Assembly: GCA_021774955.1 (NCBI GenBank) | Contig: JAJFIN010000106.1 | Span: forward strand, 1 to 43,815 | DNA: 43,815 nt | From: Alphaproteobacteria bacterium | Lineage (GTDB): Bacteria > Pseudomonadota > Alphaproteobacteria > M2410 | Reading direction: 5' to 3' | In this document: one piece after another, positions 7,681 to 30,019 of the stretch | Layout: each line of letters opens with the position of its first letter | Numbering within the stretch: position 1 is the first letter of the stretch | The notes under the pieces: model-generated | Told to the model about the DNA's origin: nothing | Databases searched by the model: none | Seen by the model: only the letters and a program-made list of their open reading frames with translations | Position numbers and translations under genes: made by a program

Positions 7681-7768
7681 GGCATTATGTAGCAAACGCA
7701 CCTTCGGGGAGACTCGTCATGATTGAGCTAGAATCCACCTTTCCACCTACTCGTGGTAGGGATCGAGG

Positions 7769-11518: not shown

Positions 11519-11551
11519 GCCTTATTCTAGGCAGGCAGGGATTCACTTCTA

Positions 11552-11573
11552 GGTGTGTTTGCTACATAATGCC
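11552..11573. repeat. Right terminal inverted repeat of the IS1595-family transposon
   Basis: GGTGTGTTTGCTACATAATGCC is the reverse complement of 7681-7702 with one mismatch. Confidence 0.85.
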
Positions 11574-11703
11574 GGAATTCTCCCGCGGCGTTCTGGACTC
11601 CCTGCGCCAGCCTTTGGAGACCGGCGAAGCGGTGATCGCGCGGGCTAATGCCCATGTCACCTATCCTGCCCGGGTTCAGTTGATCGCGGCGATGAATCCG
11701 TGA
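11574..11703 (+). pseudogene. comM: comM middle fragment (between the two insertions)
   Basis: Continues the comM frame as (E)[41 protein letters not shown] and then stops at TGA 11701-11703, where ComM proteins normally continue with a Cys-rich segment. Confidence 0.85.
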
Positions 11704-13214: not shown

Positions 13215-13331
13215 TGTGTCGCTAGATTCTAGCGCTGATGGGTATATATTCTCAAGGGGAAAGAACTGGTGTAGAGACTATACTTAAGTACGACCACATA
13301 GCGCGATTGGGAACGAACCTCCGATCTCGCT

Positions 13332-13388
13332 GGTAAATTGCTGCGGTGCATCCGGTCCACCGTAAGCGCAAACGGCAGAAAATTTCCT
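13332..13388 (+). repeat. Possible short or degenerate member of the island repeat family
   Basis: GGTAAATTGCTGCGGTGCATCC...GGCAGAAAATTTCC shares the GGTAAATT...GGTGCA core and the GAAAAT(T/C)T end with the 117-bp repeats. It has its own terminal inverted symmetry. Confidence 0.4.
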
Positions 13389-13479
13389 GCTAAGTGATCC
13401 GAAGAATGGGCACGCCTCACAATCAATTTTTCCTGACTTTTCTGAACTAAAATACAGAATTAGGATATATTGAATTAGG

Positions 13480-15390
13480 ATGCCAAATTGCCACCCTCTG
13501 CAATATGAAATTTGGATCTACATTATGTGGCCACCAAAAAACAGTAACCGATCATTGGATGGCCCCCGCCCTATCCCCTTGAAGCTTCAAGAACAGTTAG
13601 CTCTGTGCGCTACCTTCCCAGAGCGCGTTCTATTTATCGATATAGAGACAACGGGCTTAAGCCACTATTACGACGAGATTACAATTGTTGGCTGGTCGTT
13701 TGGTGGACGGGCATCGACCTTTGTCAAAGGTCAAGACCTTAGTCTACTCCTGGAAGATGCTGCAAATGCCAAAATCCTTGTCACCTTTAATGGAATACGT
13801 TTTGACCAACGTTTTCTCCGTCAGGAGTTTCCAGAAATCGCACTGCCCGAGGCGCATATTGATCTCATGTATTTATGTCGCCGCGTTGGTCTGACAGGAG
13901 GGCAAAAGGCAATAGAAAATGAGCTGGGCTTGCTATTCAGAGAAGACATTGTGGGCGTCGATGGGTTTGCCGCGGTTCTTTTGTGGCATCGTTATCTTCG
14001 CGGAGATTTGGGTGCCCTTAAGTCGCTCATTCATTACAACCGTGCTGACATTGCGGCGATGGGAGCCATCCTTGATGATGTACTTTCACGGTTCATCATC
14101 AATCCTGACCTGTTTGCAACGCCCATTGAATTTCTACATTGGTCAGCACCTCCGGGTTGGCGTGAACTTCCGGAGGATTTGAAACCTGCATCTGAGGATT
14201 TGACCAAAGCACTGCGGTTTGTGGATATATTTGAGGCGACCCCTGCCAAAGATGCACGAATTGTTGGTATAGACCTTACAGGTTCAGAAAAGCGCGCAAC
14301 TGGTTGGTGTCTGCTGGATGGCTCATATGCGACAACAACATTGCTTACCTCTGACCAAGAGATTTTGGAGAGTACAATCGGCGCAAAACCCGATCTGGTT
14401 TCTATCGACTCTCCTCTTTGCCTTCCCTCTGGTCGCATAACAGTGGAAGATTCCGACCCAGGTCGAGAGCAATACGGTATTATGCGTCAATGTGAACGTG
14501 AGCTAAAAAAGCGCGGTATTAATGTTTATCCCAGCCTCCTTCCGAGCATGCAGAAGTTGACAGCGCGGGGCATATTCCTTGCACAGCAACTCAGGGAGAA
14601 AGGTATCCCTGTGATTGAAAGTTATCCAGGTGCTGCACAGGATATTATGCGCATCCCCCGTAAAGGGGCAGGGGTTGAATGGTTGCGGCTTGGTTTGAGT
14701 GATTTTGGTATCACTGGCGATTATCAAAACGAAAATGTTTCGCACGATGAACTTGATGCCATCACTTCGGCGCTTGTCGGAACATTTCACATGGCAGGTC
14801 TTTCAGAGGCACTTGGTACGGAAGAAGAACCGCCATTGATAATCCCAAAACTCGATAAAGAGCAGGGGCCATATGTGATTGGTATTAGTGGACCGATTGC
14901 GGCAGGAAAAACAACGTTTGCCCAGGCACTTGCAGACAAGGGGTTTGCCTATACTCGGTTTAGCCTGGTGATCGATGATATGCTTAGTAAGCAAGGTTTA
15001 GAGCTGGATCGCATCAACCGGCAAAAACTGGGGGGTGAAATCAATGCTGATGGTCGTCAACGTTGGTTGGCTGAACAGACTATCCGCAAGGTCGAAGGGG
15101 CTTCTCACATCGTGGTAGATGGTCTCAGGTTTCCCGAAGATCACGCCTATCTTGTCGAGAAATTTGGTGCTCGATTTCATCATATTTATATAGAAGCAGA
15201 CGAGGCTATCCGACGAAACCGCTATAACCAACGAGGAAAAGAGGGCGGTTTTGATGCTGCTTCAGGCTCGGACGTTGAGAAAAGGGTGATTGAACTAGCT
15301 TCGATCTCACATGAGAAATTTGTTAACAATGCGAGCAAATCAGATATTGTGAATCATGTAACTGATTTGATTCATGATATAAAAAGGTAG
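13480..15390 (+). CDS. Three-domain fusion: DEDDy 3'-5' exonuclease (YprB/RNase_H_2-like), DUF429-like RNase-H-fold domain and P-loop nucleotide kinase-like domain
   Basis: Exo motifs FIDIETTG, FNGIRFDQRF and HYNRAD. The middle domain has IVGIDLTGSEKRATGW, LVSIDSPLCLP and HDELDAITSALVG. The C-terminal part has Walker A GISGPIAAGKTT and VVDGLRFPED. Confidence 0.75.
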   Translation: MPNCHPLQYEIWIYIMWPPKNSNRSLDGPRPIPLKLQEQLALCATFPERVLFIDIETTGLSHYYDEITIVGWSFGGRASTFVKGQDLSLLLEDAANAKILVTFNGIRFDQRFLRQEFPEIALPEAHIDLMYLCRRVGLTGGQKAIENELGLLFREDIVGVDGFAAVLLWHRYLRGDLGALKSLIHYNRADIAAMGAILDDVLSRFIINPDLFATPIEFLHWSAPPGWRELPEDLKPASEDLTKALRFVDIFEATPAKDARIVGIDLTGSEKRATGWCLLDGSYATTTLLTSDQEILESTIGAKPDLVSIDSPLCLPSGRITVEDSDPGREQYGIMRQCERELKKRGINVYPSLLPSMQKLTARGIFLAQQLREKGIPVIESYPGAAQDIMRIPRKGAGVEWLRLGLSDFGITGDYQNENVSHDELDAITSALVGTFHMAGLSEALGTEEEPPLIIPKLDKEQGPYVIGISGPIAAGKTTFAQALADKGFAYTRFSLVIDDMLSKQGLELDRINRQKLGGEINADGRQRWLAEQTIRKVEGASHIVVDGLRFPEDHAYLVEKFGARFHHIYIEADEAIRRNRYNQRGKEGGFDAASGSDVEKRVIELASISHEKFVNNASKSDIVNHVTDLIHDIKR

Positions 15391-15395
15391 GAATT

Positions 15396-16439
15396 ATGCC
15401 AGTTTCAATCGTAGTCGGTGGCCAGTTTGGCTCTGAGGGCAAAGGCAAAATATCACTCGAACTCGCCAGACAGTCGAAATCTCCAATAACTGTCGTTCGT
15501 GTGGGCGGATCAAATTCCGGACACACTGCATATAATCGCGAGGGCAAGAAATATGCGCTGCGGCAATTGCCTGCTGGCTGCATAGATCGAAACGTTGATG
15601 TGGTTTTCCCAGCAGGTGCCTATATCGATGTTAACATTTTGCTTGATGAAATCGAACAACTTCAATTTCCCAGGGATCGCATCAAGATAAGCAGTTTTGC
15701 TCGAATTATTACCTCTGAGCACAAAGCTTGGGAGCGAGAGGCTGGCCTCGGCGGCGCAATTGGCTCGACCGGTTCAGGCGTTGGTGCGGCGGTCATGGCA
15801 TCCGTCGCCCGGGGGGCCGCAAACTTCAAATTGCATTCATTGGATGCCGAACATTCTGGCAAGCTGGAAGAATTCCTTTGTGATTCCTCAGATCTCCTTC
15901 GCAAACGCCTAGACAAAGGATGCCGTGTTATTATCGAAGGCTCTCAGGGCTTCGGGCTTTCTTTACTCGAAGGTGGGTATTGGCCAAAAGCAACCTCACG
16001 GTCAACTACAGCAGCGGCAGCGCTTACAGAAACAGGCCTTAGCCCGCGTGACGTGGATGACATCACGATGGTTCTTCGTTCGTATCCGATCAGGGTAGCT
16101 GGCGAATCCGGACCTCTTCCAGGAGAAACAACCTGGGAAGAAATTGCTCAAACGGTAGGAATGAATGAGGACATTCGGGAATACACCACTGTTACGAAAA
16201 AACTCCGCCGTGTCGGCCGGTTTGATGCTGAACTGGTACGCCGTGCCCTCACCGTGAACGCGCCAACTCGTTTGGTGTTGAACCATATGGACTATATTGG
16301 CTCGATTGATGAGCTGAGTGACCCGAAAAGCAGACTAAGGCAGTTTATATCTGGGCTCGAATTTGATATCGACCGCAAGATCGATTGGTTTGGCTTCTCT
16401 GGGTTTGATGTGGCTCAAGCTGAAAGCCATGTCGCGTGA
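15396..16439 (+). CDS. Short-form adenylosuccinate synthetase homologue (PurA/PurZ-like)
   Basis: 347 aa. It carries GGQFGSEGKGK (canonical GDEGKGK with Asp replaced by Ser), GGSNSGHT, GSTGSGVG, EGSQGFGLS, GESGPLPGE and TTVTKKLRRVGRFD. It is about 80 aa shorter than bacterial PurA. Confidence 0.8.
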   Translation: MPVSIVVGGQFGSEGKGKISLELARQSKSPITVVRVGGSNSGHTAYNREGKKYALRQLPAGCIDRNVDVVFPAGAYIDVNILLDEIEQLQFPRDRIKISSFARIITSEHKAWEREAGLGGAIGSTGSGVGAAVMASVARGAANFKLHSLDAEHSGKLEEFLCDSSDLLRKRLDKGCRVIIEGSQGFGLSLLEGGYWPKATSRSTTAAAALTETGLSPRDVDDITMVLRSYPIRVAGESGPLPGETTWEEIAQTVGMNEDIREYTTVTKKLRRVGRFDAELVRRALTVNAPTRLVLNHMDYIGSIDELSDPKSRLRQFISGLEFDIDRKIDWFGFSGFDVAQAESHVA

Positions 16440-17584
16440 CGGATAAGTCTAGTGAGGTCCCGGAATCCGAGCCCGAGCCCGAGCCCGAGCCCGAAGAAGC
16501 GCTGTATATTGACCGGGCAACCGCAAAAGCAACGGCTGAGAAGTTTGGTAAGGATGGAGTAGACCCGAATCCATCAATACCTCACTCCCTGTTATCTGCA
16601 GAGCACATACGTGATTACGTTAAAAGAACGGGTCTTATCGGACCATATAACAATGGAACTGGAGCAAAGACACGGCTCAAAAAGGCTGCATATGAAGGAA
16701 GAATTGGCGAACACGCCTATTTATTCAACAAAGAGGGTGTTCTAGAAGAGTGCTTTCTTGAGGGCGGCCTCCTGGTTCCGGCCAACTCTATTGTTTTCGT
16801 TGAATGTGATTTGGACTTCCGTCTCCCCGAATTTATCGCTCTACGATTTAATCTCCAAATTAGACACGTGCACAGAGGGTTGTTGCTAGGAACGGGACCT
16901 TTGGTAGACCCAGGCTATTGGGGGAAGTTGTGCATACCCTTGCATAACCTGACTGACGAAGATTACCTAATTCCACTTGATGAAGGACTCATTTGGCTGG
17001 AGTTTACAAAAACAACGTCTAATCTGGGTGTTCGAGACAAGGCTATTGGGCGAGCGCCTCTTGGTAAGGAATTCTGGGATATTCAGGAATTCATTACCAA
17101 GGCTCAAAAGCCGTATAGTGGAATTGGAAGACACCCCCCCATTCGTAGCTCTATGGGTGCTATGGTTACAAATATGTTTGAAGAGGCCAAGAAGAAGGCT
17201 GACACGGCTATATCACGTGTGCGACTAATATTGGGTCTGGGGGGTGTTGCTGTTATTGGTATTACCATAGGTGTTTATCAATTATGGGCTGCATATGTTT
17301 CAATGTATGATAGACAGTATGAAGAGCTTCGGCAGCCGTTAATTCAACTTCAGAATAATGTTGCGGACATAAATAGACAGCTTCAAAACTCGGAAGACAG
17401 CGCTACTGTCCAACCTGAGTTCTCCTTGCTATTAAAAGAATTGCAAACGATGACCACTAAGATTGAGTCACTCAATCAAAACAGTGCATTGCTCGAACGT
17501 ATTCTAAATCTTGAGAATGAATTGAGTATCATTCGATCTGAGTTAACACCGAGTAGCGCTGAAGGAACTAAGCTTGCAGAATAG
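16436..17584 (+). CDS. dCTP deaminase/dUTPase-fold protein with C-terminal TM helix and coiled coil
   Basis: GTG start overlaps the upstream stop (GTGA). An acidic EP repeat sits at the N-terminus. The Dcd/Dut-like core is PANSIVFVECDLDFRLP...GPLVDPGYWGKLCIPLHNLT. The TM segment is LILGLGGVAVIGITIGVYQLWAAYV, followed by a heptad-like tail. Confidence 0.7.
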   Translation: MTDKSSEVPESEPEPEPEPEEALYIDRATAKATAEKFGKDGVDPNPSIPHSLLSAEHIRDYVKRTGLIGPYNNGTGAKTRLKKAAYEGRIGEHAYLFNKEGVLEECFLEGGLLVPANSIVFVECDLDFRLPEFIALRFNLQIRHVHRGLLLGTGPLVDPGYWGKLCIPLHNLTDEDYLIPLDEGLIWLEFTKTTSNLGVRDKAIGRAPLGKEFWDIQEFITKAQKPYSGIGRHPPIRSSMGAMVTNMFEEAKKKADTAISRVRLILGLGGVAVIGITIGVYQLWAAYVSMYDRQYEELRQPLIQLQNNVADINRQLQNSEDSATVQPEFSLLLKELQTMTTKIESLNQNSALLERILNLENELSIIRSELTPSSAEGTKLAE

Positions 17585-18293
17585 ATATGCCGGGGATATT
17601 GGCGACTATATAAAGCTGGCCCTTCTGCGGCATCTCTCCGTAGGTAAAAATCTCGGTATCGCTTGGTATCTACATCCTGACGAGAATCTTAATTCGGATG
17701 GGAAACACACCAGTTATCTCACCGACAAGGAGAAATGGCGTCCGCTTGATCCCGAATTGTTCGACACCCTCACGAAAGTGGTTTCAAAGACCCGATCAAT
17801 TGCAGCACTCCAAACCTCTGGCATGTTGAATGCTGTTTATTGGAGTGAGCCGCTGGCAATAGCTTCTGTGCTCGCGAGCAAGCGGTGTGATTATCGATCT
17901 AGATGGTTTAATGCCGCTTTGAAACAATTGAAAACATGCAATCTTATTTTTGCTGATCCCGACAATGGAATTATCGATGATGGCGAACATCGCAGGCGGC
18001 AACCGACCTTCGGAAAACAAATGCCTCTGTTCGAAGTGTTGACGATTTCAAATAGCAGAACTGCTATTATCTACCACCATAACACCCGTTTCAAAGGCGG
18101 GCATGATGCTGAGGTCGATCACTGGCTAGCCCAATTGGGGCCGGATGCCATAGCAGTGAGAGCGAACGCCTATAGTTGCCGCACGTTCTTCATTGTTAAT
18201 CCTGATATAGAAACCAAAAATAGGGCAGAGGGTTTTTGCAAGCAGTGGTCCGATCATAAGGTAAGACTGCATCTTTCACTAAACGACCGGTGA
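17574..18293 (+). CDS. Hypothetical protein, fourth gene of the operon
   Basis: 239-aa ORF with a TTG start and an 11-nt overlap with the upstream gene. GAAGGAA lies 9 nt upstream. Motifs GDIGDYIKLALLRHL and LIFADPDNGI resemble motifs of RlmJ-like methyltransferase folds, but only loosely. Confidence 0.6.
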   Translation: MQNRYAGDIGDYIKLALLRHLSVGKNLGIAWYLHPDENLNSDGKHTSYLTDKEKWRPLDPELFDTLTKVVSKTRSIAALQTSGMLNAVYWSEPLAIASVLASKRCDYRSRWFNAALKQLKTCNLIFADPDNGIIDDGEHRRRQPTFGKQMPLFEVLTISNSRTAIIYHHNTRFKGGHDAEVDHWLAQLGPDAIAVRANAYSCRTFFIVNPDIETKNRAEGFCKQWSDHKVRLHLSLNDR

Positions 18294-18893
18294 ATTTATA
18301 GGGGTTTAATCGCAGAATTATACACGGAGATTCTGAGTGTAAAAAGTAAGACTAACGTTTATTTGGAACTTAAATTGTCTCAATTTTTATATTTCCCTGG
18401 GTATCTCACCCTTACATAAGAAGTCTAGGGCTGACTCGAACCTGCTCCCCATCGATGTATTTTGGTCACCCTTGTCTATCTTTCAACATCTATAATCTGG
18501 ATGTCATCGGCTTCCTTCATCAGATCAAGCTCAGTCAGAATGTCTTCGATTGTTGTAATTACATGAACGTGAGCGTTACGAGACATGACTGGACCGTAAC
18601 CTCGATCAACTAATTACTTTGCGGCTGATAAACTTCACGGCAGCCGTAACGCCACCGTGAAAGTTCAACCCGGAAAAACTCCAGCTGGGTGATCCAAACA
18701 AGAGGAGCGGGTCAAGTGCCAGAAACTTTATCAAGAAATGGCACATAAGAATGGATTTTACATCATCAGACAGTAGATAGTTTAGTCACTGTATCGTACG
18801 CAAACTTAACTACCAATTTGTGGGCACACAACCAATTTTATCAATTTGTACAAAGTACCATCACTTAAGCATTCTCATGTGCGTTGTGTGATG

Positions 18894-19406
18894 CTACCGA
18901 TTATGTAGCGACGCGAAGTGCGTAATCGCAAGTGCCGCAGCATTAAAGAGTCCCATTCGCGGATCTTCACTCATCCAAGGCTTTCGCACCGGGGGTAGCT
19001 TGTGACCCAGACCTTCAACACAATCCAATACAGCAAGTGCAATCTCATGACGCGTTTTGTCCTGTTCTCCGTAAAAGTGGTTGCTGACATCTGCACGGGT
19101 AAGGACTTTCACTTTGATGCCCTTTTTCTTGGCGAGTGATACCAAGGAGCGGCAGAGTTTTTGTATCCGTTGAGAGCGGCGTGAGGATATGCTTTCGTAT
19201 TCCTCCAATACCAGTACCCTCGGTTTATATTTATCAAGTAGCGTTTTGGCCTTTTTGATAGAGTCTCGGTTCTTATCCTTATGGACCGTCGCAATACCCC
19301 AATCGACTAGGAGTTCAGGACCCTCAAACAGCACCCAGCCAAAGCCTTTGGTAGTGGGATGGATTGCGAGAACCAGTTGGTTTCTGCCTACGATATTCTG
19401 CTTCAT
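18894..19406 (-). CDS. RuvC-like (RNase H fold) protein with substituted catalytic positions
   Basis: 170 aa. LAIHPTTKGFGWVLF aligns with the RuvC IDPG strand, VLVLEEYE with the RuvC Glu strand, and FNAAALAITH with the RuvC DAADALAIAITH helix. The Asp positions read His and Asn. Confidence 0.5.
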   Translation of the reverse strand: MKQNIVGRNQLVLAIHPTTKGFGWVLFEGPELLVDWGIATVHKDKNRDSIKKAKTLLDKYKPRVLVLEEYESISSRRSQRIQKLCRSLVSLAKKKGIKVKVLTRADVSNHFYGEQDKTRHEIALAVLDCVEGLGHKLPPVRKPWMSEDPRMGLFNAAALAITHFASLHNR

Positions 19407-19750
19407 ACGTCAGTTTGTTCACGCTCCAGGCGTGTGATGATTGACTTAATAAAGTCTCGTTTCGCAGCAGAAGCTGCGCCTTGTCTGGCAACGAGTCGTT
19501 CGAGGAGTTTTTCTGCTCTCGCGCAGGCGGCGCGTTCAATATTGGTGTAGAGGTGGGGAAACAACTCACATGCCTTCACGCCAAAGACGATCTCACATCC
19601 AATGATGAAATCCACGCTTGGTGTGCGCGTCAGAGACTCGTATTTTGAAATTACCGTTGACGTAAGGCCAAATAGAATTCCCAACTCCTCCTGCGTTAGT
19701 GCATTACGTCTTCGATACGTGTGAAGGTAGCTGGGAAGTGAATTAGGCAT
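19403..19750 (-). CDS. XRE-family helix-turn-helix protein
   Basis: HTH segment LTQEELGILFGLTSTVISKYESLTRTP. Its stop overlaps the start of the downstream gene by 4 nt. Confidence 0.75.
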   Translation of the reverse strand: MPNSLPSYLHTYRRRNALTQEELGILFGLTSTVISKYESLTRTPSVDFIIGCEIVFGVKACELFPHLYTNIERAACARAEKLLERLVARQGAASAAKRDFIKSIITRLEREQTDV

Positions 19751-19962
19751 ACAGTGTCATGCCACTCAGCAGCCGGTACGGGAGTGCTGTCTATTCTCTC
19801 AAAACAAAAACAGCGTGCGAAGGAGTAAAACCTTGGCACGCCGTCAACATTTTCCTATTGGGTATACGTTTTCTCACAGTGCTGGTAATTGTACCCGCTC
19901 CACCAATATTGACACCAATGGGCAAGCTGTGGTGTCAAAAAGTTACTCCTCCCGTTCTCAAA

Positions 19963-20157
19963 ATGAACGCGCAGAATAGGGCTATGGCAAAGAAAGCGAA
20001 GCTCCCTGGAGATCTTATTTTAGACCGGTATATGCAAAACGCAACAGAAGAGGAGCGACGTCAAGCCTATGAAAACCTTCGCTCGTTTGCAGTGGTACTC
20101 GCCCGCATTGATGCACGGCTGAAATACACAGAAGTTGATTCGCGTAAATCAATTTGA
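19963..20157 (+). CDS. Small hypothetical protein upstream of recombinase 2
   Basis: Internal Met of tracked ORF 19759-20157 (MNAQNRAMAKKAKLPGDL...). It ends 27 nt before the recombinase start. The start choice is uncertain. Confidence 0.35.
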   Translation: MNAQNRAMAKKAKLPGDLILDRYMQNATEEERRQAYENLRSFAVVLARIDARLKYTEVDSRKSI

Positions 20158-20184: not shown

Positions 20185-21690
20185 ATGAAAAAGTATTTAG
20201 CGTACGTCCGCGTCTCAACGGTGAAACAAGGCGAGCGGGGGTCATCGCTTCAAGAGCAACGCAGCGCCATCGAGGCTTTTGCTCAACGGCAAGGGCTCAC
20301 CGTTACCACATGGTTTGAGGAAACCGAGACGGCTGCCAAGCAGGGAAGGCGCATATTTTCTCGCATGCTCCGGCTTCTTGAGCATGGCGAAGCAGACGGT
20401 GTCGTTATTCACAAGATCGACCGGAGCGCCCGCAACCTCAAAGACTGGGCAAACCTTGGCGAGCTCATTGATCGAGGCATCGATGTGCAATTTGTCCACG
20501 ACAGCGTTGATCTCCGTTCCCGAGGAGGCAGGCTCTCTGCTGATATTCAGGCTGTCGTCGCCGCAGACTATATCCGCAACCTTCGTGATGAGGTGCGCAA
20601 GGGGTTTTATGGCCGCCTCAAGCAGGGCCTCTACCCCTTACCTGCTCCGATCGGATACCTAGATAGGGGGCCGGGCAAGCCCAAAGAGCTTGACCCGGTT
20701 CGTGCACCACTGGTGCGCCAAGCCTTTGAGCTCTACAGTACCGCGACCGTTGGACTGAAAAAACTACGTATAGAATTGAACCGACGAGGTTTGCGGTCGA
20801 GAAGTGGAAAACCGCTTTCTCTCACTGGCCTCTCAACGATGCTCAACAACCCTTTCTACATGGGCCTGATCCGCATCAGGCGTACCAACGAAACATTTGA
20901 GGGTGTTCACCAGCCTCTGATCTCTAAAGCGCTCTTTGATCGTGTCCAAGCGATCCTTCGTGGGAAAACCGTTTCTCGAAGCGTCAAGTACGACTTTGTC
21001 TTTCGCCGCTTTGTTCGTTGTGCCTCCTGCAAATACCACCTGATCGGTGAACGACAAAAGGGTCATGTTTATTACCGCTGCCACAGTGAAGGGTGCAAGG
21101 GAACCTGTATTCGAGAAGAGGTTTTGGATGAGGTAGTACAAAGTGCCCTAAAGCTTTTAGTCTTCGATACTAAGGAGATGCAGGAACTCAGTGCACTTGC
21201 CGACGAGGCGAAAACGCGTGATGTGGGTGACACCGAGAAACTACGGGCATCAATCAATATGCGCCTCGTTAAATGCGAAGAGCGGATGGTACGTCTGACT
21301 GATGCCCTTGTTGATCGGCTTATTGACAAAGAGCTGTTTGAATCTCGCAAGCTTGCCTTGTTCAATGAGAAGCGGGAGTTGGCCGATCAATTAGAGAGAT
21401 TGTGTGATTCAGAGGCTCCGGCGAATGTAGCGTTCAAAAACCTCGAACTCGGAAATGTCGCGTATTCTGGATATAAAGAAGGAATTCCGCTTGAGCGCCG
21501 CGCAATCATAGAATCCGTTACCTCGAACCTTGTTGCGCAGAGAAAAAACCCAGTAATTAAAATGAAATCTCCGTTTCAAGAGATCATAAATTGGCGGAAA
21601 TCGTTAAACGGTGCACCGTATCGAGGCGACACTCGAACGAGAATGAAGCAGCTTCTTGCTATTCTAACGGAGGGTGACAATAAGACATAA
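20185..21690 (+). CDS. Large serine recombinase, copy 2
   Basis: 501 aa with YVRVSTVKQ, IHKIDRSARN, a recombinase domain and the zinc-ribbon Cys cluster CASCKY...CHSEGC. Confidence 0.9.
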   Translation: MKKYLAYVRVSTVKQGERGSSLQEQRSAIEAFAQRQGLTVTTWFEETETAAKQGRRIFSRMLRLLEHGEADGVVIHKIDRSARNLKDWANLGELIDRGIDVQFVHDSVDLRSRGGRLSADIQAVVAADYIRNLRDEVRKGFYGRLKQGLYPLPAPIGYLDRGPGKPKELDPVRAPLVRQAFELYSTATVGLKKLRIELNRRGLRSRSGKPLSLTGLSTMLNNPFYMGLIRIRRTNETFEGVHQPLISKALFDRVQAILRGKTVSRSVKYDFVFRRFVRCASCKYHLIGERQKGHVYYRCHSEGCKGTCIREEVLDEVVQSALKLLVFDTKEMQELSALADEAKTRDVGDTEKLRASINMRLVKCEERMVRLTDALVDRLIDKELFESRKLALFNEKRELADQLERLCDSEAPANVAFKNLELGNVAYSGYKEGIPLERRAIIESVTSNLVAQRKNPVIKMKSPFQEIINWRKSLNGAPYRGDTRTRMKQLLAILTEGDNKT

Positions 21691-21789
21691 TCTTACTCCG
21701 TCTGAATAACCTTTTTATGAGTTAGGTTTGTGCGTGTTGACCTGCCCTGAACTACCTCGAGTGATCATACAGCAAGATCTGAGCGTAGC

Positions 21790-22368
21790 CTATTTTGGCT
21801 GTTTTAAACCAGTTGGTACAGCACTCGCTACTGACTCAGCTTTGCGGTTACTAATGTAGCCCGTTATGTAATAAATCCAAAATGTGAGTAGTGATATATC
21901 TGATCTAACCATTACGACGTTAACAGAGATTATTTCTAAGCTCTCGTGTTCAGCGGGCGGGTTATTGTCGTCCTTGTGTCTGTAGTAATATCCTGCCCAA
22001 CAATTTTCACCAGGGCCATATCGGCGAAGATAGTATGCACCCTGACTATATACAGATTTATCAATCGGCCAAAATATACCAAAAAAGATTCTCCCAAGAA
22101 CACGGCCATAGCAGTGCCACCGCCTGTGTCGCTCGTTCTTTGGTTCGACTCGCCTCAACCTTCCATGAACCACTTCGCCTTTTTGCCGCAACAGAATAAT
22201 ATCTCTTTTTACAATTCTCCCTTCGTTATCAAATACTGCTGCGTCCCAATTACCCGACCCCTGGTTTCGGAATTCGGCAAATTTGGAAATCAACCAGGCA
22301 ATAGCAAGCAGAGCTATTCCACCAAGGATACTACCCACTACCCCATTGAAAATGTCAGACAAGTCCAT
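21790..22368 (-). CDS. Hypothetical protein with N-terminal TM helix
   Basis: 192-aa ORF with the TM segment VVGSILGGIALLAIAWLI. It lies 25 nt downstream of the HAD gene on the same strand. Confidence 0.55.
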   Translation of the reverse strand: MDLSDIFNGVVGSILGGIALLAIAWLISKFAEFRNQGSGNWDAAVFDNEGRIVKRDIILLRQKGEVVHGRLRRVEPKNERHRRWHCYGRVLGRIFFGIFWPIDKSVYSQGAYYLRRYGPGENCWAGYYYRHKDDNNPPAEHESLEIISVNVVMVRSDISLLTFWIYYITGYISNRKAESVASAVPTGLKQPK

Positions 22369-22393: not shown

Positions 22394-23164
22394 TCAGTTC
22401 GGCAATTGCGGTGGATCCGAAACCCTTTGCCGATCGAAATGGGCTTCCAATATCGTATCTAAACTATCGATATGACTGCTCGCGGCAGAAAGCTCAAAAA
22501 TGTCACTTCTATTGCTTATGCTTGAGGCAAGTTCTCCAAATTCTTTGGAATTGGAGTCGTTCTTTACCAAGCAAACTATTTCAGAGCGCTCAAAGAGTGG
22601 CATATCAGAAGTCGTGTCGCCGATTGCGATCAAAGCACTGCTGACCGGACCAAGCTCAGCTGAAGTGGCAATTCTCTTGTCTCTTTTGGTGCCATGAGTT
22701 TTAACCTCGATTTCTCCGCTTATCGATTGAGCGATGGTCACACCATAAATTCGGTCTATTTGAAGCTTTTCAGAGTATGCGCTTAGAACAATGGAAGGTG
22801 CCCCACTTACTATAACTATGTCAGTGTTGCGACTTTTGATTGTCGAAAGTAAATCATGGGCAAACGGCATAAGCTTTCTGTCAGATTCCACAAATTCTGA
22901 GGCGGCATTTTCTAATCTTTCGACTTCTACGTCTCTAATTAGTTCTGCATATGCGTTAGCAGCAAGCACCACTCCTTCCTCATAGCTTATTTGACCACTA
23001 GCAAATGATTTATAGTGTGCTCTGAGCAAATCTTCATTTTTCCAATTCACGATTTGACGGGAAATCAAAAAATCTGCCCAATCGAAAATTAGATATCCTT
23101 CGCGTAAGGTGCCATCCCAATCGCAGAGACAAATATTCACAAATGGCTTTTTTGGTTTCCTCAA
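22394..23164 (-). CDS. HAD-superfamily hydrolase (HAD-IB/SerB-like)
   Basis: Motif I CDWDGTL, motif II VSGAP, motif IV GDTTSDMP. Confidence 0.75.
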   Translation of the reverse strand: MRKPKKPFVNICLCDWDGTLREGYLIFDWADFLISRQIVNWKNEDLLRAHYKSFASGQISYEEGVVLAANAYAELIRDVEVERLENAASEFVESDRKLMPFAHDLLSTIKSRNTDIVIVSGAPSIVLSAYSEKLQIDRIYGVTIAQSISGEIEVKTHGTKRDKRIATSAELGPVSSALIAIGDTTSDMPLFERSEIVCLVKNDSNSKEFGELASSISNRSDIFELSAASSHIDSLDTILEAHFDRQRVSDPPQLPN

Positions 23165-23396
23165 AAGCGTTCTCCAGATAGCGTGCCAGCTTACTCTGAT
23201 CCTACGATATCACATTTCTGGCCGTAACATTTAGTTATAGGGTTTAACGTAGGGCCTAGGATTTTCACCGAGTCGGTGAAGGGCTAATACTGGAGGAGAA
23301 TCTATGAGGGCGGTTGAGATTGTTGAAGGTCGTGTTCAGAAGCGGCTGTCTGTGCCGTTCATTGGCCATCTGGAAAAGAGCGCCAAATTATGGCGA

Positions 23397-23512
23397 CGGG
23401 GTAAATTCTTGCCGTAGTGTCAGGTGCACCTTATCGTAACAGCAATCGAACGCAGCTCATGCAGTTACTGACTACTTTGCTTGATCTAGCCAAGGAGGAA
23501 AAATCTCACTCC
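23397..23512 (+). repeat. Island structured repeat, copy A (~117 bp)
   Basis: Aligns with 26097-26213 and 29421-29539. Shared blocks are ACGGGGTAAATT, GTGTCAGGTGCACC, TCGAAC, GCCAAGGAGGAAAAATCT and a C-rich end. The two ends are imperfectly inverted. Confidence 0.7.
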
Positions 23513-23622
23513 AACACCTAAATCACACCTATTTCTAGCATCTGGCACGTTCTGCTTGCCAAGGTAGCAAATCGCTGTACGATGAAAACAGGCTCAGTCA
23601 GGTTTGATCAGTAGATCTATCT

Positions 23623-25647
23623 ATGAAGAAAATCGATTTACACGTTCATACAAAGTCAGCTGATAGAGAACGTTCAATCGTGTTCGATTTAGAGCGTCTC
23701 AGCGAGTACGTCCAAGTGCGTGAGATAGATTGTGTCGCAATAACCAATCACAATGAATTTGATCTCGTTCAGTTTGAGGAGATCCAATCAACTCTCAACA
23801 TCCTTGTTCTTCCTGGAATCGAGATGGACCTTGAAGGTAGTCAGATACTTCTCATTGGTGACGCATCTAACCTTGGTGATTTCGATTCAAAATGCCAAAA
23901 GATCCAAGAACGACAGCCGAACAAAAGAGATTCTGTTTCGGTCGAAGAGTTAAAGGAAATTTTCGGGGATCTATCCAAATATCTCTTGATACCGCACTAC
24001 GACAAGAATCCAGCTATTAAGGATGGAACACTTAATGCTTTGGGTCCTGACGTTAACGCAGGTGAAGTCGCGAGCCCAAAAAAATTCATGTACTGCATAC
24101 GCAATGACGACAAGCTTGTGCCGGTCTATTTCAGTGATTGTCGTATCGAAGAGTCTCTGACGGAATTTCCCATACGACAAACCTATATTTCGTGTGATGA
24201 ATTGAATTTATCGACCATTAAAAATTGTCTCCGCGACAAGAGTAAGGTTGCACTGTCCTTCAATGATGGGAACGATATTTTTCAAGTTTTTGATGATGGG
24301 CAGCATATATCAACAGGATTGAATGTGATTCTTGGTGAGCGTTCCACGGGGAAGTCGCACACCCTTAAGAGAGTCCGGGACGCGATATCAAACGCCAAGT
24401 ATTTGGAGCAATTTTCTTTAGTGGCAACCGACGATCAAGAGGACGAAAGACGATTCAACCGATTTCTGAGCGACAAACACAGTCTCTTCTCTCGAGAGTA
24501 TTTGGCAGAGTTACAACAAGTTGTGAATGATGTAGTCGAGATCGACCTTGACGCAGATTTGAGACGAGTTGATGTATACCTCAAGTCGTTAAAGAAACAT
24601 GCGAAAGAGTCGGAGAAACACGATGCATTTTCTCGGGCGAAGCTTTTCAGCGAAGAAAAATATCCAGATACCAAACAAACAGGACTAGAGGATTTGATTG
24701 GGTCTACCCAGAACCTAATTGAAAACGTTGAATTCAAAGACACGATTGAAAAGCATGTGTCAATTCAGCATTTGAAAGCGCTTATCGTCGAGTTGATGAC
24801 GCTATATGCAACAAGGGAACAAGAACGTCTAAAGAAAAGATGGGTTAACGAACTAGTTTCGGAAATTAAAGCCAAACTACAAGTACGAACCGCGGCTACA
24901 GTTATTACTGATCTTGATCTCTATGACATTGCGATGAACAAGGTTCGTGTTGAAAAGTTTGAGCGTATAGTGGAGGCAGCTAGAAAACCTAGGGAACTTT
25001 TGCGTAAACCATTGCAAGGCTTTGAACTCGTCGCGACAGCGGGCGAATTCGAAGGTGCTGGGCGGCTAAAAAGGCTAAGTCGTCTGACGGTAGCGTTTTC
25101 AGACGCGTATAAGGTTTATTCAGAACCTTATCGGTTTCTTCAGGCCCTCAAAGAGATTGATGGGTTGGCAGAACAGGATTTATACAAGTACTTTGTCAAA
25201 ATCGACTTCAAAATACTAAATCAAGACGGATATGAAGTATCTGGCGGTGAAAGATCAGAGTTCAATCTTTTGCAGGAAATTCAGGATGCCCAAAATAATG
25301 ACATACTTCTAATTGACGAGCCTGAGTCTTCATTTGACAACCTCTTCCTTAAGGACAGCGTCAATGAAATTATTCGAGAAATTGCCAAGAACATGCCTGT
25401 CGTTTTAGTTACTCACAATAACACTGTAGGGGCATCAATAAAGCCTGCGTATCTTCTTTATACGAGCAAAGAGATGGAGAACGGCAAGGTCGTTTATCGA
25501 ATTTATTCGGGGTTCCCAACAAATAAGCAACTGCAATCGATAGATGGGAAGGCTGTTAGTACATGGGAAGTGACGATGGGTTGTTTAGAAGCAGGGGTCG
25601 ACGCTTATAATGATCGAAGTAGAGGCTATGAAGATATTAAAGATTGA
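23623..25647 (+). CDS. PHP-domain phosphoesterase fused to an ABC/OLD-type ATPase (PplA-like architecture)
   Basis: PHP motifs IDLHVHTKSAD, VAITNHNEF, LPGIEMD and LIPHYDK. The ATPase part has Walker A GERSTGKSHT, ABC signature VSGGERSEFNL, Walker B ILLIDEPESSFD and H-loop VLVTHNN. Confidence 0.75.
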   Translation: MKKIDLHVHTKSADRERSIVFDLERLSEYVQVREIDCVAITNHNEFDLVQFEEIQSTLNILVLPGIEMDLEGSQILLIGDASNLGDFDSKCQKIQERQPNKRDSVSVEELKEIFGDLSKYLLIPHYDKNPAIKDGTLNALGPDVNAGEVASPKKFMYCIRNDDKLVPVYFSDCRIEESLTEFPIRQTYISCDELNLSTIKNCLRDKSKVALSFNDGNDIFQVFDDGQHISTGLNVILGERSTGKSHTLKRVRDAISNAKYLEQFSLVATDDQEDERRFNRFLSDKHSLFSREYLAELQQVVNDVVEIDLDADLRRVDVYLKSLKKHAKESEKHDAFSRAKLFSEEKYPDTKQTGLEDLIGSTQNLIENVEFKDTIEKHVSIQHLKALIVELMTLYATREQERLKKRWVNELVSEIKAKLQVRTAATVITDLDLYDIAMNKVRVEKFERIVEAARKPRELLRKPLQGFELVATAGEFEGAGRLKRLSRLTVAFSDAYKVYSEPYRFLQALKEIDGLAEQDLYKYFVKIDFKILNQDGYEVSGGERSEFNLLQEIQDAQNNDILLIDEPESSFDNLFLKDSVNEIIREIAKNMPVVLVTHNNTVGASIKPAYLLYTSKEMENGKVVYRIYSGFPTNKQLQSIDGKAVSTWEVTMGCLEAGVDAYNDRSRGYEDIKD

Positions 25648-25954
25648 AAACGGTAAGGGATTTTTTCGCATCTCGGCTGAAGCAGAGTGGCAGGAAATCG
25701 ACACCATCGATAAAGAAGGTCTTATCGTATTGTTAGATGCTTTTCTAACCTCTGATGCAGAAATGGATTTCCCAGAAGAAAACGACATTCAGAATCAAGC
25801 GCAACAAATTGTCTATAAAAGCATCTTTGAAAAACTTAGTAACCTTAGTGACAACAAGAAAAAATTCAAAGATGAAAGTGATCGAAAGTTCCTAAAGGAA
25901 ACGAGAAAATATTCCGATGGAGCTGAGATTGCCGATTCGACTCAAGAAGAATAG
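25610..25954 (+). CDS. Small acidic hypothetical protein overlapping the PHP-ATPase gene end
   Basis: 114-aa ORF with a 38-nt overlap with the upstream gene. No recognisable family. Confidence 0.45.
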   Translation: MIEVEAMKILKIENGKGFFRISAEAEWQEIDTIDKEGLIVLLDAFLTSDAEMDFPEENDIQNQAQQIVYKSIFEKLSNLSDNKKKFKDESDRKFLKETRKYSDGAEIADSTQEE

Positions 25955-26096
25955 TTCGGTTGCTTGATTTCCAAAGGGATGCAGCCTGATGCGAGCGAAG
26001 ATAAAAGAGAAGCGGCATTGAGTGGATAAGTTCCAGTCAATGCCGCTTCGAGACATAAGAATCAAAAAATTGCTCTGCAGAGTCGTAGATTTTGTC

Positions 26097-26213
26097 ACGG
26101 AGTAAATTCGGGCCAAATTGTCGAGTGCACCGCATCGTGTCGATCTTCGAACGAGGATCAAGCAGCTCTTCACTATCCTACTTGGCCTTGCCGAGAACGA
26201 AAAATCTAACCCC
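26097..26213 (+). repeat. Island structured repeat, copy B
   Basis: ACGGAGTAAATT...GTCGAGTGCACCGCATCG...TTCGAAC...GAACGAAAAATCTAACCCC. Same orientation as copies A and C. Confidence 0.7.
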
Positions 26214-26525
26214 AATCTGATTTGAAGCCCATTTGAAGTGACGAGCAACAGACCAGGCGGGGTCGAATGTTCGTGTTAGGGCAATAGTTGTGTGCTTGCA
26301 GTTTGCAATTGCGAATCTTTAGCTCACTTGACAAAGTTCAAATTCATGAGAGAATTAATCTCTGTACAGAATATATTGCTGCTAAAACGTGCTTATTAGA
26401 TGAGTGTGCAGGGAGTTTTGCCAAAAATTAATTTCATATGCCTATGCAAGAATACATAAAAATATTTGAAGAACTGGGTGAAGCCGTATCCAAGACATTA
26501 GACGAACAAATGCGAGAAGAGCTGA

Positions 26526-28937
26526 TTAAGCAATTTGAAGATCAACTGCATCAATTCGGTTTGAAGTCTTCGTTTGATGATGATTAGTCGGCGCGTTTTT
26601 GGCCAAACCTAGCTCGATTAGTTCAAATTCGTCAATCTTTCTTAGATGGTATTTAGTTTCCACTCCATTGGCATTCTTATCGCTAAGTGGGAAGAGCTGA
26701 AAGCTATGGAAAAAGTCTAGCTGTCTATCCTTTGCGTTTAGTAGCAGTTCTAAGTAGTCGTCACCAACTTTTGCGCGGCGTGATATTTCCAGCAATCTAT
26801 TTCGAAAAGACTCTATTTGAACAATATCTTCTGAGTTCAACGCTAGTTCTGTAGCTCGACTCAAAATCGTGTCGAGTGTCCCTATTGCTTCATCAAGCAG
26901 CGACGTGTCCTGACATTCAGGGTGTTTAAAGTATTCGTATAAACATAGCGCTCGACCAAAGGAAACTCGCAACCAAAACTCTGGCATTTTGTTGATAGAA
27001 ATTGAGGAAAGTGCGAATCCATAGGCCCCTAGTGCCAACTTAAAAGCGTCGCTCTGCCTCTTTCTATTTTCAAGGCTAGCAAGCTGATGAAGTATGAATG
27101 CTCGGAATGCCCCGCTGTTAGCCCTAAGCAGCTCACGTTGTTCTTGGCTTGATGGGTCTGGAGCCTCGTTGACGGTCTCCAGCGCTTCGTCAAATGCCTC
27201 AAGTGCTTTCTTTAGCTCCTCAGCGCGCGGTTTCCCTGTTCGAATGCTTGCCAATCTAAAATAGGCATGGCCAATATGGTTGTGTATCCTTATCCAGTCC
27301 AGAGGTTTCGGAACTTTCCCGTTCAGTGCTGACTTACTTTGAGTAAATGCTTCAATAGCACCCTTGAGCAATTTCTTACGCTTCGATTGGCTTTTGATGC
27401 TGGCAAGCTTCAGAAGCACCACCCCTAAATAGAATTGTATTTCCCGCCACTGGTCTTTTGCATCTTCCTTGGTCCAAACCAAGCTTGCTAGTTCGAAGGC
27501 TTTAGCAGCATCCTCGAGCCGTTTTAACCGATTCTTGCTGGTATCTTGGGCGGCTAAGCCGAGTAGAGCCAGACCGTATATGCTCTGAGTTAATGCCCAC
27601 TGCAATTTAAATGAATATCTTTTCAGCACCGGTAGAGCACTGGCAAATGCCTTTGTCGCCGTCTCCAGAGTTTCCTGTCGTGCGCTACCCGCAAGTCGAG
27701 ATGCCAAGCCTACACAAACAATGCCATACAGGCTTTCGGTCATCGACTGTAGCACTAACGTGCCTTCCCCTTTCCATGCTTCTATGGCTGCAGAAAGCTC
27801 TTTCAAAGCCGCTTGGAATAGGCTGAGACCCCTATCTTCGCCACCCTTCAGAGGTGCGAGTATCAAATATAAAATACCCAGAAGAGACCTAATGCTTGCG
27901 TATTCAGCTCCATGGTCTCTTGGCATCCAAATCTCTAACGCCTCTTGGGTTGAGCCAATTGCTTCCTCGACACCTTTGATTTTGTCCTGTTTTTCCTCCA
28001 TTGCCGAAAGTGACAAGCGAGCCAAGCTAAAAGACATAAGAACTACTGAGCGATTATCCCCGGTTAGGGCTGTATTTTCCATTTCTAGAAAATTACGCAG
28101 CTGTTCAACGATGGGCCTCAATACTACATTAAGTTCAGTCAGACGCTTTTTGTCTATTGTAGGGCCCTCAATTGTACTCAAGGAGAAGTCCTGGAGTGGG
28201 CTTATAGACGCAACAATTTGTGCCACTAATGCAGCACAAAGCGCGTCATTCACGCCTTCCCTGAATTCGACAATTATTGGAGTAACAGCGCTTTCCAAAT
28301 CCTCTGCTTGCAGGTGGAGAGGTAGGAAATACAATTCATAGCGCGCTCTCTCTTTGTCCGACATTAAATTATACTTGCCCCATACGAGAACATCCGCATT
28401 CTTATCGGCAAGTAGCTCTCGACGTTCTTTTAGTTTGGCTTCGAACTTCTTTGGATTATTCGTGGGGAGAGGTTTTAGGGTTTTTCTCAGACGACGGACT
28501 TCAATACCTTTTGCTGTCTTTTGTCTTGTCAAAAATGCCCATAATCGTATGGGAATTTGCTGCCAGCGGTTGAGCCCAAAATTTTTGTTCAGGTAATCCA
28601 CCAATGCAGTCGTGTTTTTCTTCTTTCGGTTGTCCCCCTCTAAGTTGGCGACAAAGATAGTCAAAATCGTCTTCTTAGAGGGGCGCATGAGCCTTATTCC
28701 GACTAGTATCGCTCCCCACGTTAAGAAGGGTAAAACAACGTAGTAGAATAGCTGATTAGTAATAAACCGTTGCAAAAAGTCTATTGTTGGTCCTACCCAC
28801 GACGGGGGAAGGAACGTGCTGAGGAATATCTCAAGCTTCTCAAGGACTCCATTTGCGGTAGAGACCATTTTTGAAATCAGACTGTTTAGGGTGTTGACGA
28901 TATTGCCACACTCCATCAGCCTATTCCTTCCGTACAC
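26526..28937 (-). CDS. Membrane-anchored helical-repeat (TPR-like) protein
   Basis: 803-aa ORF with N-terminal hydrophobic helices (FYYVVLPFLTWGAILVGIRL). It continues as about 550 aa of repetitive helical A/L/E-rich segments (recurrent AL.A...AL pattern). No P-loop or catalytic motif seen. Confidence 0.65.
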   Translation of the reverse strand: MYGRNRLMECGNIVNTLNSLISKMVSTANGVLEKLEIFLSTFLPPSWVGPTIDFLQRFITNQLFYYVVLPFLTWGAILVGIRLMRPSKKTILTIFVANLEGDNRKKKNTTALVDYLNKNFGLNRWQQIPIRLWAFLTRQKTAKGIEVRRLRKTLKPLPTNNPKKFEAKLKERRELLADKNADVLVWGKYNLMSDKERARYELYFLPLHLQAEDLESAVTPIIVEFREGVNDALCAALVAQIVASISPLQDFSLSTIEGPTIDKKRLTELNVVLRPIVEQLRNFLEMENTALTGDNRSVVLMSFSLARLSLSAMEEKQDKIKGVEEAIGSTQEALEIWMPRDHGAEYASIRSLLGILYLILAPLKGGEDRGLSLFQAALKELSAAIEAWKGEGTLVLQSMTESLYGIVCVGLASRLAGSARQETLETATKAFASALPVLKRYSFKLQWALTQSIYGLALLGLAAQDTSKNRLKRLEDAAKAFELASLVWTKEDAKDQWREIQFYLGVVLLKLASIKSQSKRKKLLKGAIEAFTQSKSALNGKVPKPLDWIRIHNHIGHAYFRLASIRTGKPRAEELKKALEAFDEALETVNEAPDPSSQEQRELLRANSGAFRAFILHQLASLENRKRQSDAFKLALGAYGFALSSISINKMPEFWLRVSFGRALCLYEYFKHPECQDTSLLDEAIGTLDTILSRATELALNSEDIVQIESFRNRLLEISRRAKVGDDYLELLLNAKDRQLDFFHSFQLFPLSDKNANGVETKYHLRKIDEFELIELGLAKNAPTNHHQTKTSNRIDAVDLQIA

Positions 28938-29420
28938 GGTGGAATGCTGTGTTAGATGGGCTGTTGGGCCAATAAACTGTAAGGCATTCGGATGAACGGG
29001 AAGTAACGTTCATCCGAGACTTATTGATGCATGAATATTCGAAAACTGAGTAATCCAATAGAACTTGCACGCATGAAATATTGCGCCCCCCGTGTACCCC
29101 TGGGAAGACTAAACCAAATCAAGACGCTTGAGCAAGAGTATTCGCATACCTCTGGGACAGATGGTTTTTCTCCGTTCAGCATCACGCCAAACACGAAGAG
29201 TATTGTTAGAGTGGCATGTCTCGTATTTGAGCTTTCCAGAATGGAGCGAGAGCGGATTAGTATCGGTTTGTCATCAATTCTTGAGTAGTTTCCGTATCAG
29301 CGCCAGCTGCAAACAGTCAAACACAAAGCTATATACGTTATCGTTTTACGATATCATCCGAGCCGCATCGCTACGATGGCCGACTGCCGATATCACTAAC
29401 TTCGTCATGTATGTATGTTA

Positions 29421-29539
29421 CGGGGTAAATTTTGTCCGCTGTGTCAGGTGCACCGCATCGCCCTGACGCTCGAACCAGAGCTAAGCAACTCTTTGCTCTT
29501 TTGTGTGAGGGTGCCAAGCAGGAATAATTATACCCCCCG
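29421..29539 (+). repeat. Island structured repeat, copy C
   Basis: ACGGGGTAAATT...GTGTCAGGTGCACCGCATCG...CTCGAAC...GCCAAGCAGGAATAATTATACCCCCCGT. The terminal inverted symmetry ACGGGGTA / TACCCCCCGT is clearest in this copy. Confidence 0.7.
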
Positions 29540-30019
29540 TGCAAAGAACTAGTTCGTGTCATAAGACGCCCGGGGAGATCAAAAGATCAGTTCACAGAAT
29601 ATACTAATTGCTGCCTTTCCATCTGCAGAATGGCTCAAAAAATTGCAGACTCAGAATCACTTGCCATTTTCGTACTTATACGCTTCATCTCTTCCAGAAA
29701 TAGGCCCGAATAGTCTAGTCGCGAATGTGCTGCGAACAATTATCAACCTGAGGCAAATCAGTCCGTTAGGATACAGTAGATCGGACTATAGCCGAGCCTG
29801 CAGAGACCGCTCAAACTCCAACGACGCATTGTTGCGAAGGCCCATGAGCCCTATAATGGAATAGCTCTAAAATTGGAGTCTTGGAGCAAGAGCTAGCTGG
29901 AATTCTCAAGAAAATGATCGATTTAGTCGTCTTTGCTGACGATGGATTTGCAATTCCAATATGATGCAGCCTGCGGAAAGTTGACTTCCAAAGTACAACT
30001 GTCAAAGTATTAACTTACG

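Follow-up and report, generated by a model that had tools for sequence, protein, structure and literature searches.

A family of repeats in a 43,815-nt stretch of alphaproteobacterial DNA (contig JAJFIN010000106.1; the whole stretch is called the window below) was analysed together with the gene of LSR2, a large serine recombinase encoded beside them. The repeats are probably scars left at the junctions of an LSR2-based array of gene cassettes, and a probability of about 0.6 was assigned to this reading. The array points to a candidate integron-like way of collecting genes that had not previously been described in the literature searched. What can be read from the DNA is that the repeats are homologous to the recombinase gene's 3' end, that the copies have a common breakpoint and a fixed polarity, that the layout recurs in the recombinase family and that the cargo is free of recombinase genes. 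The simplest account of the shared breakpoint, the polarity, the open tails, a left arm present only in displaced copies and the recombinase-free cargo is that cassettes bearing a recombinase tail insert site-specifically.

Three copies of the repeat, A (23396-23522), B (26097-26225) and C (29420-29546), are present on the + strand of the window. Pairwise identities in blastn ranged from 69 to 83% (E values of 1.5e-8 for A versus B, 6.5e-7 for A versus C and 4e-3 for B versus C), the mean column identity of the alignment of about 120 nt was 76%, and a repeat finder ranked A, B and C first among the direct-repeat families of the window. A profile built from two copies recovered the third in nhmmer at E values of 1e-16 to 1e-19. 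The original prediction of three same-strand copies in the gaps between genes was borne out by these values. The sequence blocks it had named (ACGGRGTAAATT, TGTCRRGTGCACC..ATCG, TCGAAC and GCCAAG.AGGAA.AAT) were all present in the alignment, and the list of open reading frames (ORFs) agreed that the flanking genes are divergent at A, convergent at B and divergent at C. The short copy suspected at 13332-13388 gave no match to the repeat family in nhmmer profile searches.

A fourth copy, which explains the family and had been missed earlier, was found with the A/B/C profile (nhmmer, E = 9e-16) at 21610-21703 on the + strand, within the 3' end of the LSR2 gene. LSR2 (20185-21690, + strand, 501 aa) matched the Pfam families Resolvase (E = 6e-26), Recombinase (4e-17) and Zn_ribbon_recom (4e-6), and its catalytic residues R9, S11, D79, R80 and R83 are invariant in a 28-sequence alignment of the family. 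Copy 0, as the fourth copy is called here, contains the last 27 codons or so of this gene. It starts with the core GGTGCACC-N14-TCGAAC (21610-21638), a perfect match to the core pattern given below, continues as the sequence coding for the tail ..GAPYRGDTRTRMKQLLAILTEGDNKT*, and ends about 13 nt past the stop codon. The product of the gene ends in ...INWRKSLNGAPYRGDTRTRMKQLLAILTEGDNKT*. One + frame of the other copies is kept as a peptide, reading ILAVVSGAPYRNSNRTQLMQLL... in A, IRAKLSSAPHRVDLRTRIKQLF... in B and ILSAVSGAPHRPDARTRAKQLF... in C. The peptides ILAVVSGAPYR..RT.. (A), IRAKLSSAPHR..RTRIKQLF.. (B) and ILSAVSGAPHR..RTRAKQLF.. (C) are homologous to ..NGAPYRGDTRTRMKQLL.. of LSR2, and the C-terminal tail motif ..SGAPHR...RT.KQL..L.. 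is encoded by all three as it is by LSR2. Because both the DNA and the peptides are homologous to the 3' end of the LSR2 gene, A, B and C are best regarded as displaced copies of its last 30 or so codons plus a few bases past the stop codon. The LSR2 family comprises 5752 proteins at E ≤ 1e-20, the best matches being 55 to 69% identical, and its C-terminal tail is conserved as ..KSPFQEIANWRKSxxGAPxRxTPRTRAKQLLDI... The proteins P0005 and P0011 (locus L002 and others) depart from this tail right after GAP.R, just past the core, and read ..GAPGRIRTHNTSSE* and ..GAPARIRTRNDSFEGCSD.., respectively; this divergence may be due to a frameshift or to joining to non-tail DNA at the site.

Copies 0, A, B and C have the core GTGCACC-N15-TCGAAC in common, which lies at 23424-23451 in A, 26125-26152 in B and 29448-29475 in C. 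The more general pattern GTGNNCC-N15-TCGAAC has exactly four perfect matches in the 43.8 kb, namely these four copies, against a chance expectation of about 0.6 even with one mismatch permitted. Upstream of the core A, B and C carry a 28-nt left arm (ACGGRGTAAATT....CC....TGTCRR) at 23396-23423, 26097-26124 and 29420-29447, respectively, where copy 0 has recombinase coding sequence. The left arm contains an in-frame TAA, and its presence in A, B and C alone would be expected of a partner-specific half-site. Downstream of the core the tail ORFs run to stop codons at 23519-23521 (A), 26223-26225 (B) and 29525-29527 (C, the last recognisable copy), and the right ends of the repeat in this lineage read ..AATCT.AC(T/C)CC. 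The conserved stretch of the site covers about 54 bp, from -48 to +5 relative to TCGAAC, and GGTGCACC is an 8-bp palindrome. The att sites of large serine recombinases have about 40 to 50 bp, with imperfect dyad symmetry around a central dinucleotide and with attP distinct from attB.

The same layout was found in related loci. Eighty genomic loci were retrieved and each was searched with the last 45 residues of its own recombinase; 76 have a complete recombinase ORF, and about 10 kb of upstream sequence was as available as downstream sequence. One to three further tail copies were present in 12 of the 76 (L025, L026, L028/L032, L037, L051, L052, L056, L057, L060, L061 and L063). Two further tail copies with identical cores were found in L087, whose enzyme is one of the two closest relatives of the window enzyme (69% identical). 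The hosts of these thirteen loci belong to the Alphaproteobacteria, Acidobacteriota and Bryobacterales. The tail copies of a locus are spaced 0.9 to 3.2 kb apart. Every one of the displaced copies, about 20 including those of the window, lies downstream of the recombinase gene and on its strand, and none with E < 1e-4 was found elsewhere in the loci. In every lineage, as judged from near-identical pairs, homology to the gene begins sharply at an invariant GTG that lies 22 nt ahead of TCGAAC (the break falls between -23 and -22), and from there it runs through the stop codon and 20 to 60 nt or more beyond. The two bases after GTG vary by lineage (CA, GA, AA, AC or TC) and are usually the same in a gene as in the copies displaced from it. 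The displaced tails are open from the core to the stop codon at similar length.

The common start bears on another explanation, in which the repeats are what is left of whole LSR2-bearing elements that inserted in tandem and later lost their recombinase bodies by deletion, except for the 3' ends. Tandem accretion of islands is common, and tails with 50 to 60% identity in protein are what would be expected of different element lineages. Random deletions, however, would scatter the ends, whereas the displaced copies, counted as independent, all begin at the same nucleotide. They cover only positions 16 to 50 of the profile hidden Markov model, no recombinase pseudogene fragments were found upstream of any copy, A, B and C share a specific left arm that is not recombinase sequence, and the backbone genes of the element are not repeated between copies. 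Decay of complete elements is accordingly considered quite improbable as an origin of the repeats.

In the proposed array the recombination site of LSR2 would lie within its own gene, some 27 codons ahead of the stop codon, and would have the core GTG-NN-CC-N15-TCGAAC. A cassette would be a segment of 0.9 to 3.3 kb with one to four genes, no recombinase gene of its own and one site. This site would be composed of a cassette-specific left arm (in this lineage the 28-nt arm described above), the core and a surrogate recombinase tail with a stop codon. Recombination between the cassette site and the gene site would put the cassette right after the crossover, in the 3' end of LSR2, where the cassette-borne tail would complete the LSR2 ORF and so keep the enzyme gene intact. 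The previous tail would be displaced to a position downstream of the cargo, with the left arm of the cassette (here with its in-frame TAA) in front of it. Repeated insertion would produce the order LSR2-tail 0/cargo 1/A/cargo 2/B/cargo 3/C, in which the newest cassette is next to the gene and every site has the direct orientation. LSR2 itself would be the catalyst, the crossover would fall within the invariant GTG, the site would extend over about 54 bp from the conserved start of the left arm to TCGAAC, and the cassettes would be excised as circles.

The insertions might be site-specific and yet be made by another enzyme, either LSR1, a second large serine recombinase of the island, or a recombinase of the host or encoded elsewhere. 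The 3' end of LSR2 would then be only a favoured target, as are the 3' ends of tRNA genes or of rlmH elsewhere. The two recombinases do co-occur in the element, and any of these proteins could be the one that acts. Canonical large serine recombinases join attP to attB, and the hybrid products are not reused; the arrangement of the sites found here is at odds with this logic. On the other hand, the site is always in a gene of the LSR2 family across phyla, including loci without a detected LSR1 homologue within 10 kb (one is present in 49 of the 80), and the core co-varies with the LSR2 lineage (GTGCACC, GTGGACC, GTGAACC or GTGACCC). The own target of LSR1 appears to be comM, and the repeat core is unlike dif. 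An enzyme other than LSR2 is unlikely on this evidence, and LSR2 is preferred as the recombinase of the array.

Four natures had originally been proposed for the repeat, rather than promoters or terminators, and two of them, cassette boundary and recombination site, fit: the copies lie exactly between gene modules, their core is conserved in the family and their homology has a sharp breakpoint. The other two, a miniature inverted-repeat transposable element (MITE) and a small RNA, were left without support. A structured small RNA, a MITE or an element of the repetitive extragenic palindromic (REP) type that lies in intergenic gaps by chance would agree with the unit length of about 120 nt and with the intergenic position. 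Copy C folded better than its shuffles (z = -2.38), and some relatives, such as L060, have a significant inverted match between left arm and right end (p < 0.003). However, A and B folded no better than shuffled sequences (z = +0.42 and +0.24), and folds of single sequences and of the consensus on both strands gave no consistent structure. The consensus fold of the three sequences was weak (-10.5 kcal/mol), with a positive covariation term and hence no net support from covariation. The long imperfect hairpin that had been expected in every copy was thus seen at most in C, and complementarity of the 5' and 3' ends did not exceed chance in any copy (p about 0.98 for A, 0.06 for B and 0.1 for C). 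The inverted match between left arm and right end was significant in L060, L063, L057 and L051 but not in A, B and C, so that terminal inverted repeats, as a MITE would have, are inconsistent. A scan of the window against Rfam at the gathering thresholds found tRNA only and no family at the repeat copies, while copy 0 is the coding sequence of a conserved protein tail to which the other copies are homologous. No further copies were detected in the rest of the window or in scans of viral, genome and plasmid sequences: the pattern of core and right arm had no match in viral or genome contigs, and copy A had no blastn match in plasmids. The LSR2 protein had one distant match in plasmids (45% identity). 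Within the 80 related loci every copy was located downstream of the recombinase. Promoter and terminator scans showed no enrichment, and no predicted sites coincided with the repeat copies. It is very hard to reconcile an RNA, MITE or REP element with these results.

The intervals between the copies are 0.9 to 3.3 kb long and contain one to four genes each. Cassette 1 comprises, on the - strand, an ORF of 192 aa (21790-22368) and a hydrolase of the HAD family with 256 aa (22394-23164, Pfam HAD), without a match in PADLOC. Cassette 2 holds, on the + strand, PDC-M49A (23623-25647), a PHP/ATPase protein of 674 aa, and PDC-M49B (25610-25954) with 114 aa. Both were identified by PADLOC (PDC-M49A with E = 9e-285 over the full length, PDC-M49B with E = 2e-31), and this cassette would correspond to exactly one complete two-gene candidate anti-phage defence system. 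An exact-sequence look-up of the 674-aa protein gave no record. Cassette 3 encodes a protein of 803 aa (26526-28937, - strand) without a family match in scans of Pfam, PADLOC, NCBIfam and PHROGs. Cargo at other loci included SoFic in L052 (E = 2e-115), PDC-M48B-like proteins in L028 and a PemK toxin in L087, and further NUDIX, HIT, Schlafen/AlbA_2, Fic and histidine phosphatase proteins as well as many proteins without a known family. No recombinase gene was present among the cargo ORFs scanned in the window and in the related loci; cassette 1 of L061, as the sole interval of this kind, holds a fragment of a Mutator-family transposase. The closest homologue of the PDC-M49 pair (L092; 85% aa and 80% nt identity), which came from an independent sample, starts directly after a tail copy (E = 5e-15).

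Differences between related loci were also found at the tail. The recombinases of L024 and L026 are 91% identical and their flanks 87 to 88%, and the loci differ precisely in the DNA after the tail; this pair speaks to variability only. In L039 and L044, compared as a possible pair of empty and occupied loci, the extra DNA begins past the stop codon with no tail at its border, so the pair does not bear on cassette insertion. A cassette is exactly re-duplicated in L028 at 11455-19730, where tail a, a cargo of 3.1 kb, tail b and a cargo of 1.9 kb are followed by tail a, the same 3.1-kb cargo and tail b, and the junctions of the duplication are at the recombination core. Re-insertion of an excised circle could have given this arrangement, as could unequal crossing-over or an artefact of assembly.

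Several observations count against the LSR2 cassette array. The evidence consists of sequence comparisons alone, and neither a circular junction nor an empty site was seen. Contrary to the attP x attB rule, the right arms of the gene site and of the cassette sites are of a single type, and left and right outer arms are without clear mutual dyad symmetry. About 60 of the 76 family loci had no displaced copy within 10 kb. The tail of L092 is 60 to 72% identical to A, B and C versus 80% for its cargo, and therefore the two are not strictly inherited together; no tail was present at five PDC-M49 loci that are more distant (L088-L091 and L093). The 6.5 kb after copy C are also variable cargo and have no further site. 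In the codon-level selection analysis dN/dS of the tails was 0.33 to 0.77, and the second frame gave a similar signal.

Two further observations concern the arms of the repeat. In L025, L026, L028, L037, L056 and L060 the repeat unit ends in AAGTCCCNN motifs, two or three in tandem, which lie at the stop codon or just past it, and the left arm of a displaced copy in L060 (12716-12736) bears the same motifs inverted (GACTTTAGGGACTTCAGGGAC, p < 0.003 versus shuffles). The tandem motifs may be a binding site of an accessory protein. A metagenome scan with left arm and core returned five loci, of which four were the same eukaryote-like sequence and one was L083. The match in L083 (71-127) is the 3' end of a gene for ribosomal protein L33 (..KFCPRCRVHR..; ..LSKFCPRCRVHRAHREVR*), and the left arms of the window read KF(C/G/L)P.C(Q/R)VH in the L33 frame. 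Derivation of the left arm from an attB in rpmG was rejected, as an L33 gene was found neither in the window nor at the 80 recombinase loci and a 20-base pattern encoding K-F-x-P-x-C could plausibly match by chance. The likeness was judged to be probably a coincidence, an rpmG-type origin being unlikely.

The array works like an integron or a composite island of the staphylococcal cassette chromosome (SCC) type and is a member of neither, because the enzyme is a serine recombinase, the sites have no attC-type fold, the scores are below the Ccr cut-offs and the target is the recombinase's own gene. Integrons consist of IntI, attI and arrays of attC cassettes, and the sedentary chromosomal ones store defence and toxin-antitoxin cassettes (bioRxiv 10.1101/2024.07.02.601686). 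As in integrons, a recombinase gene stands beside an array of small cassettes without recombinases, and the sites, four in the window, are all in one orientation. Insertion would likewise occur at the recombinase-proximal end, and defence and toxin genes abound in the cargo. In contrast to the tyrosine recombinase IntI, LSR2 is a large serine recombinase, and no tyrosine recombinase was found among the window ORFs scanned. Sites of the attC type are imperfect palindromes (R''-L''...L'-R') that fold into hairpins; the sites of the window lack such a hairpin and consistent inverted repeats, and no RYYYAAC/GTTRRRY boxes were seen in the sequences of A, B and C. Furthermore, the primary site is inside the coding sequence of the recombinase, and each cassette has a replacement for the C-terminal coding segment. 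The cassette genes occur in either orientation and therefore cannot depend on a common Pc promoter.

Composite islands of the SCC and SCCmec type are built by the large serine recombinases CcrAB and CcrC (PMC11470126). They resemble the array in the class of the enzyme, in having tandem cassettes, some without a recombinase of their own, in the co-mobilisation of defence genes and in direct repeats derived from the 3' end of the target gene, as are copies 0, A, B and C and the repeats of L087, L061 and L028. The target in the window, however, is the recombinase's own gene (ORF 20185-21690) and not the host gene rlmH (orfX), and the repeat has about 100 to 130 nt including some 30 codons, compared with about 15 to 20 bp in SCC. 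LSR2 scored far below the NCBIfam cut-offs for Ccr proteins (90.9 bits versus 900 for CcrB, 77 versus 900 for CcrC and 70 versus 700 for CcrA), and the hosts are Alphaproteobacteria and Acidobacteriota. Islands and prophages at the 3' ends of tRNA or protein genes also restore the interrupted gene, and old ends pile up downstream as direct repeats. Such elements encode an integrase of their own and insert into a gene of the host, whereas here the inserts are integrase-less and the target is the recombinase itself. In archaeal tyrosine integrases of the SSV1 type attP is inside the integrase gene, and integration splits and inactivates this gene. The location of a site in the recombinase's own coding sequence is therefore shared with them, but the SSV1-type enzyme is a tyrosine recombinase, its gene is split and there is no cassette array, whereas the surrogate tail would keep the LSR2 gene intact. 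Full-text literature searches yielded no account of cassette arrays that have serine-recombinase tails at their boundaries.

The array is part of a low-GC island that interrupts comM, the ComM/Mg-chelatase ORF (6763-7692, + strand) being cut at about residue 306. LSR1 is encoded at 11676-13214 on the - strand (identified by Pfam). It is likely the integrase of the whole island, with LSR2 as an internal enzyme, because in seven related loci the LSR1 gene adjoins, at its 3' end, a ComM fragment that stops at about residue 306. Three backbone genes just upstream of LSR2 (18894-20157) encode proteins of 170 aa (- strand), 115 aa (- strand, helix-turn-helix, Pfam HTH_3) and 132 aa (+ strand), and homologues located by tblastn occupied the corresponding position at 56, 54 and 29 of the 80 loci, respectively. 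A HerA/TrwB-like ATPase of 912 aa and a protein of 161 aa also belong to the conserved backbone. The region between LSR1 and LSR2 (13480-18293, + strand) is variable and contains four ORFs, of which one encodes a 636-aa protein with RNase_H_2 and AAA domains (a weak PADLOC match to dCTPase), one a 347-aa protein resembling adenylosuccinate synthetase (PurA/PurZ-like) and two proteins without a family match; it may be a nucleotide-targeting defence module.

At the comM end of the island a 26-nt inverted repeat (96% complementary) occurs at 7678-7703, at the truncation of comM, and at 11551-11576, about 100 nt past the LSR1 stop codon. It brackets 3.8 kb with a transposase of the IS1595 family, a 292-aa ORF and a tRNA gene. 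This segment looks like a secondary insertion or inversion, since the ComM fragment directly abuts LSR1 in the seven relatives. The tRNA (10052-10139, + strand) lies in inserted DNA near the island edge and is followed by a terminator-like hairpin. It has a leucine-type body with a long variable arm and the anticodon loop CUUUAAA, and was reported as 'tRNA-Stop' by ARAGORN and as tRNA with 59.6 bits by Rfam, whose match covers 10052-10136. With the anticodon UUA it would read the stop codon UAA. A UUA tRNA of this kind was found in none of 34 related loci.

The textbook device for gene-cassette capture is the integron, which uses a tyrosine recombinase and folded single-stranded sites. To our knowledge, it is also the only well-established one. 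At slightly less than even odds, the widespread family of large serine recombinases in such comM islands of Alphaproteobacteria, Acidobacteriota and other phyla may be a true platform for gene capture, in which recombinase-less cassettes supply the enzyme's tail together with the att site, would thereby leave the recombinase functional and are added newest first. The arrays would then be exchangeable stores of defence and toxin genes and an independently evolved serine counterpart of the integron. If this is true, cassette capture evolved more than once, and there is a second, mechanistically unrelated platform, which pairs a large serine recombinase with a double-stranded site located in the gene of the enzyme itself. 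A further question would then be why the site is coupled to the C-terminal tail of the enzyme. The family would provide large serine recombinases with a natural pair of donor and landing pad, possibly with unusual site rules, which would be of interest for genome engineering. A copy of the recombinase tail downstream of the recombinase would furthermore serve as a simple sequence rule for finding accessory and anti-phage genes in poorly studied bacteria of soil and water.

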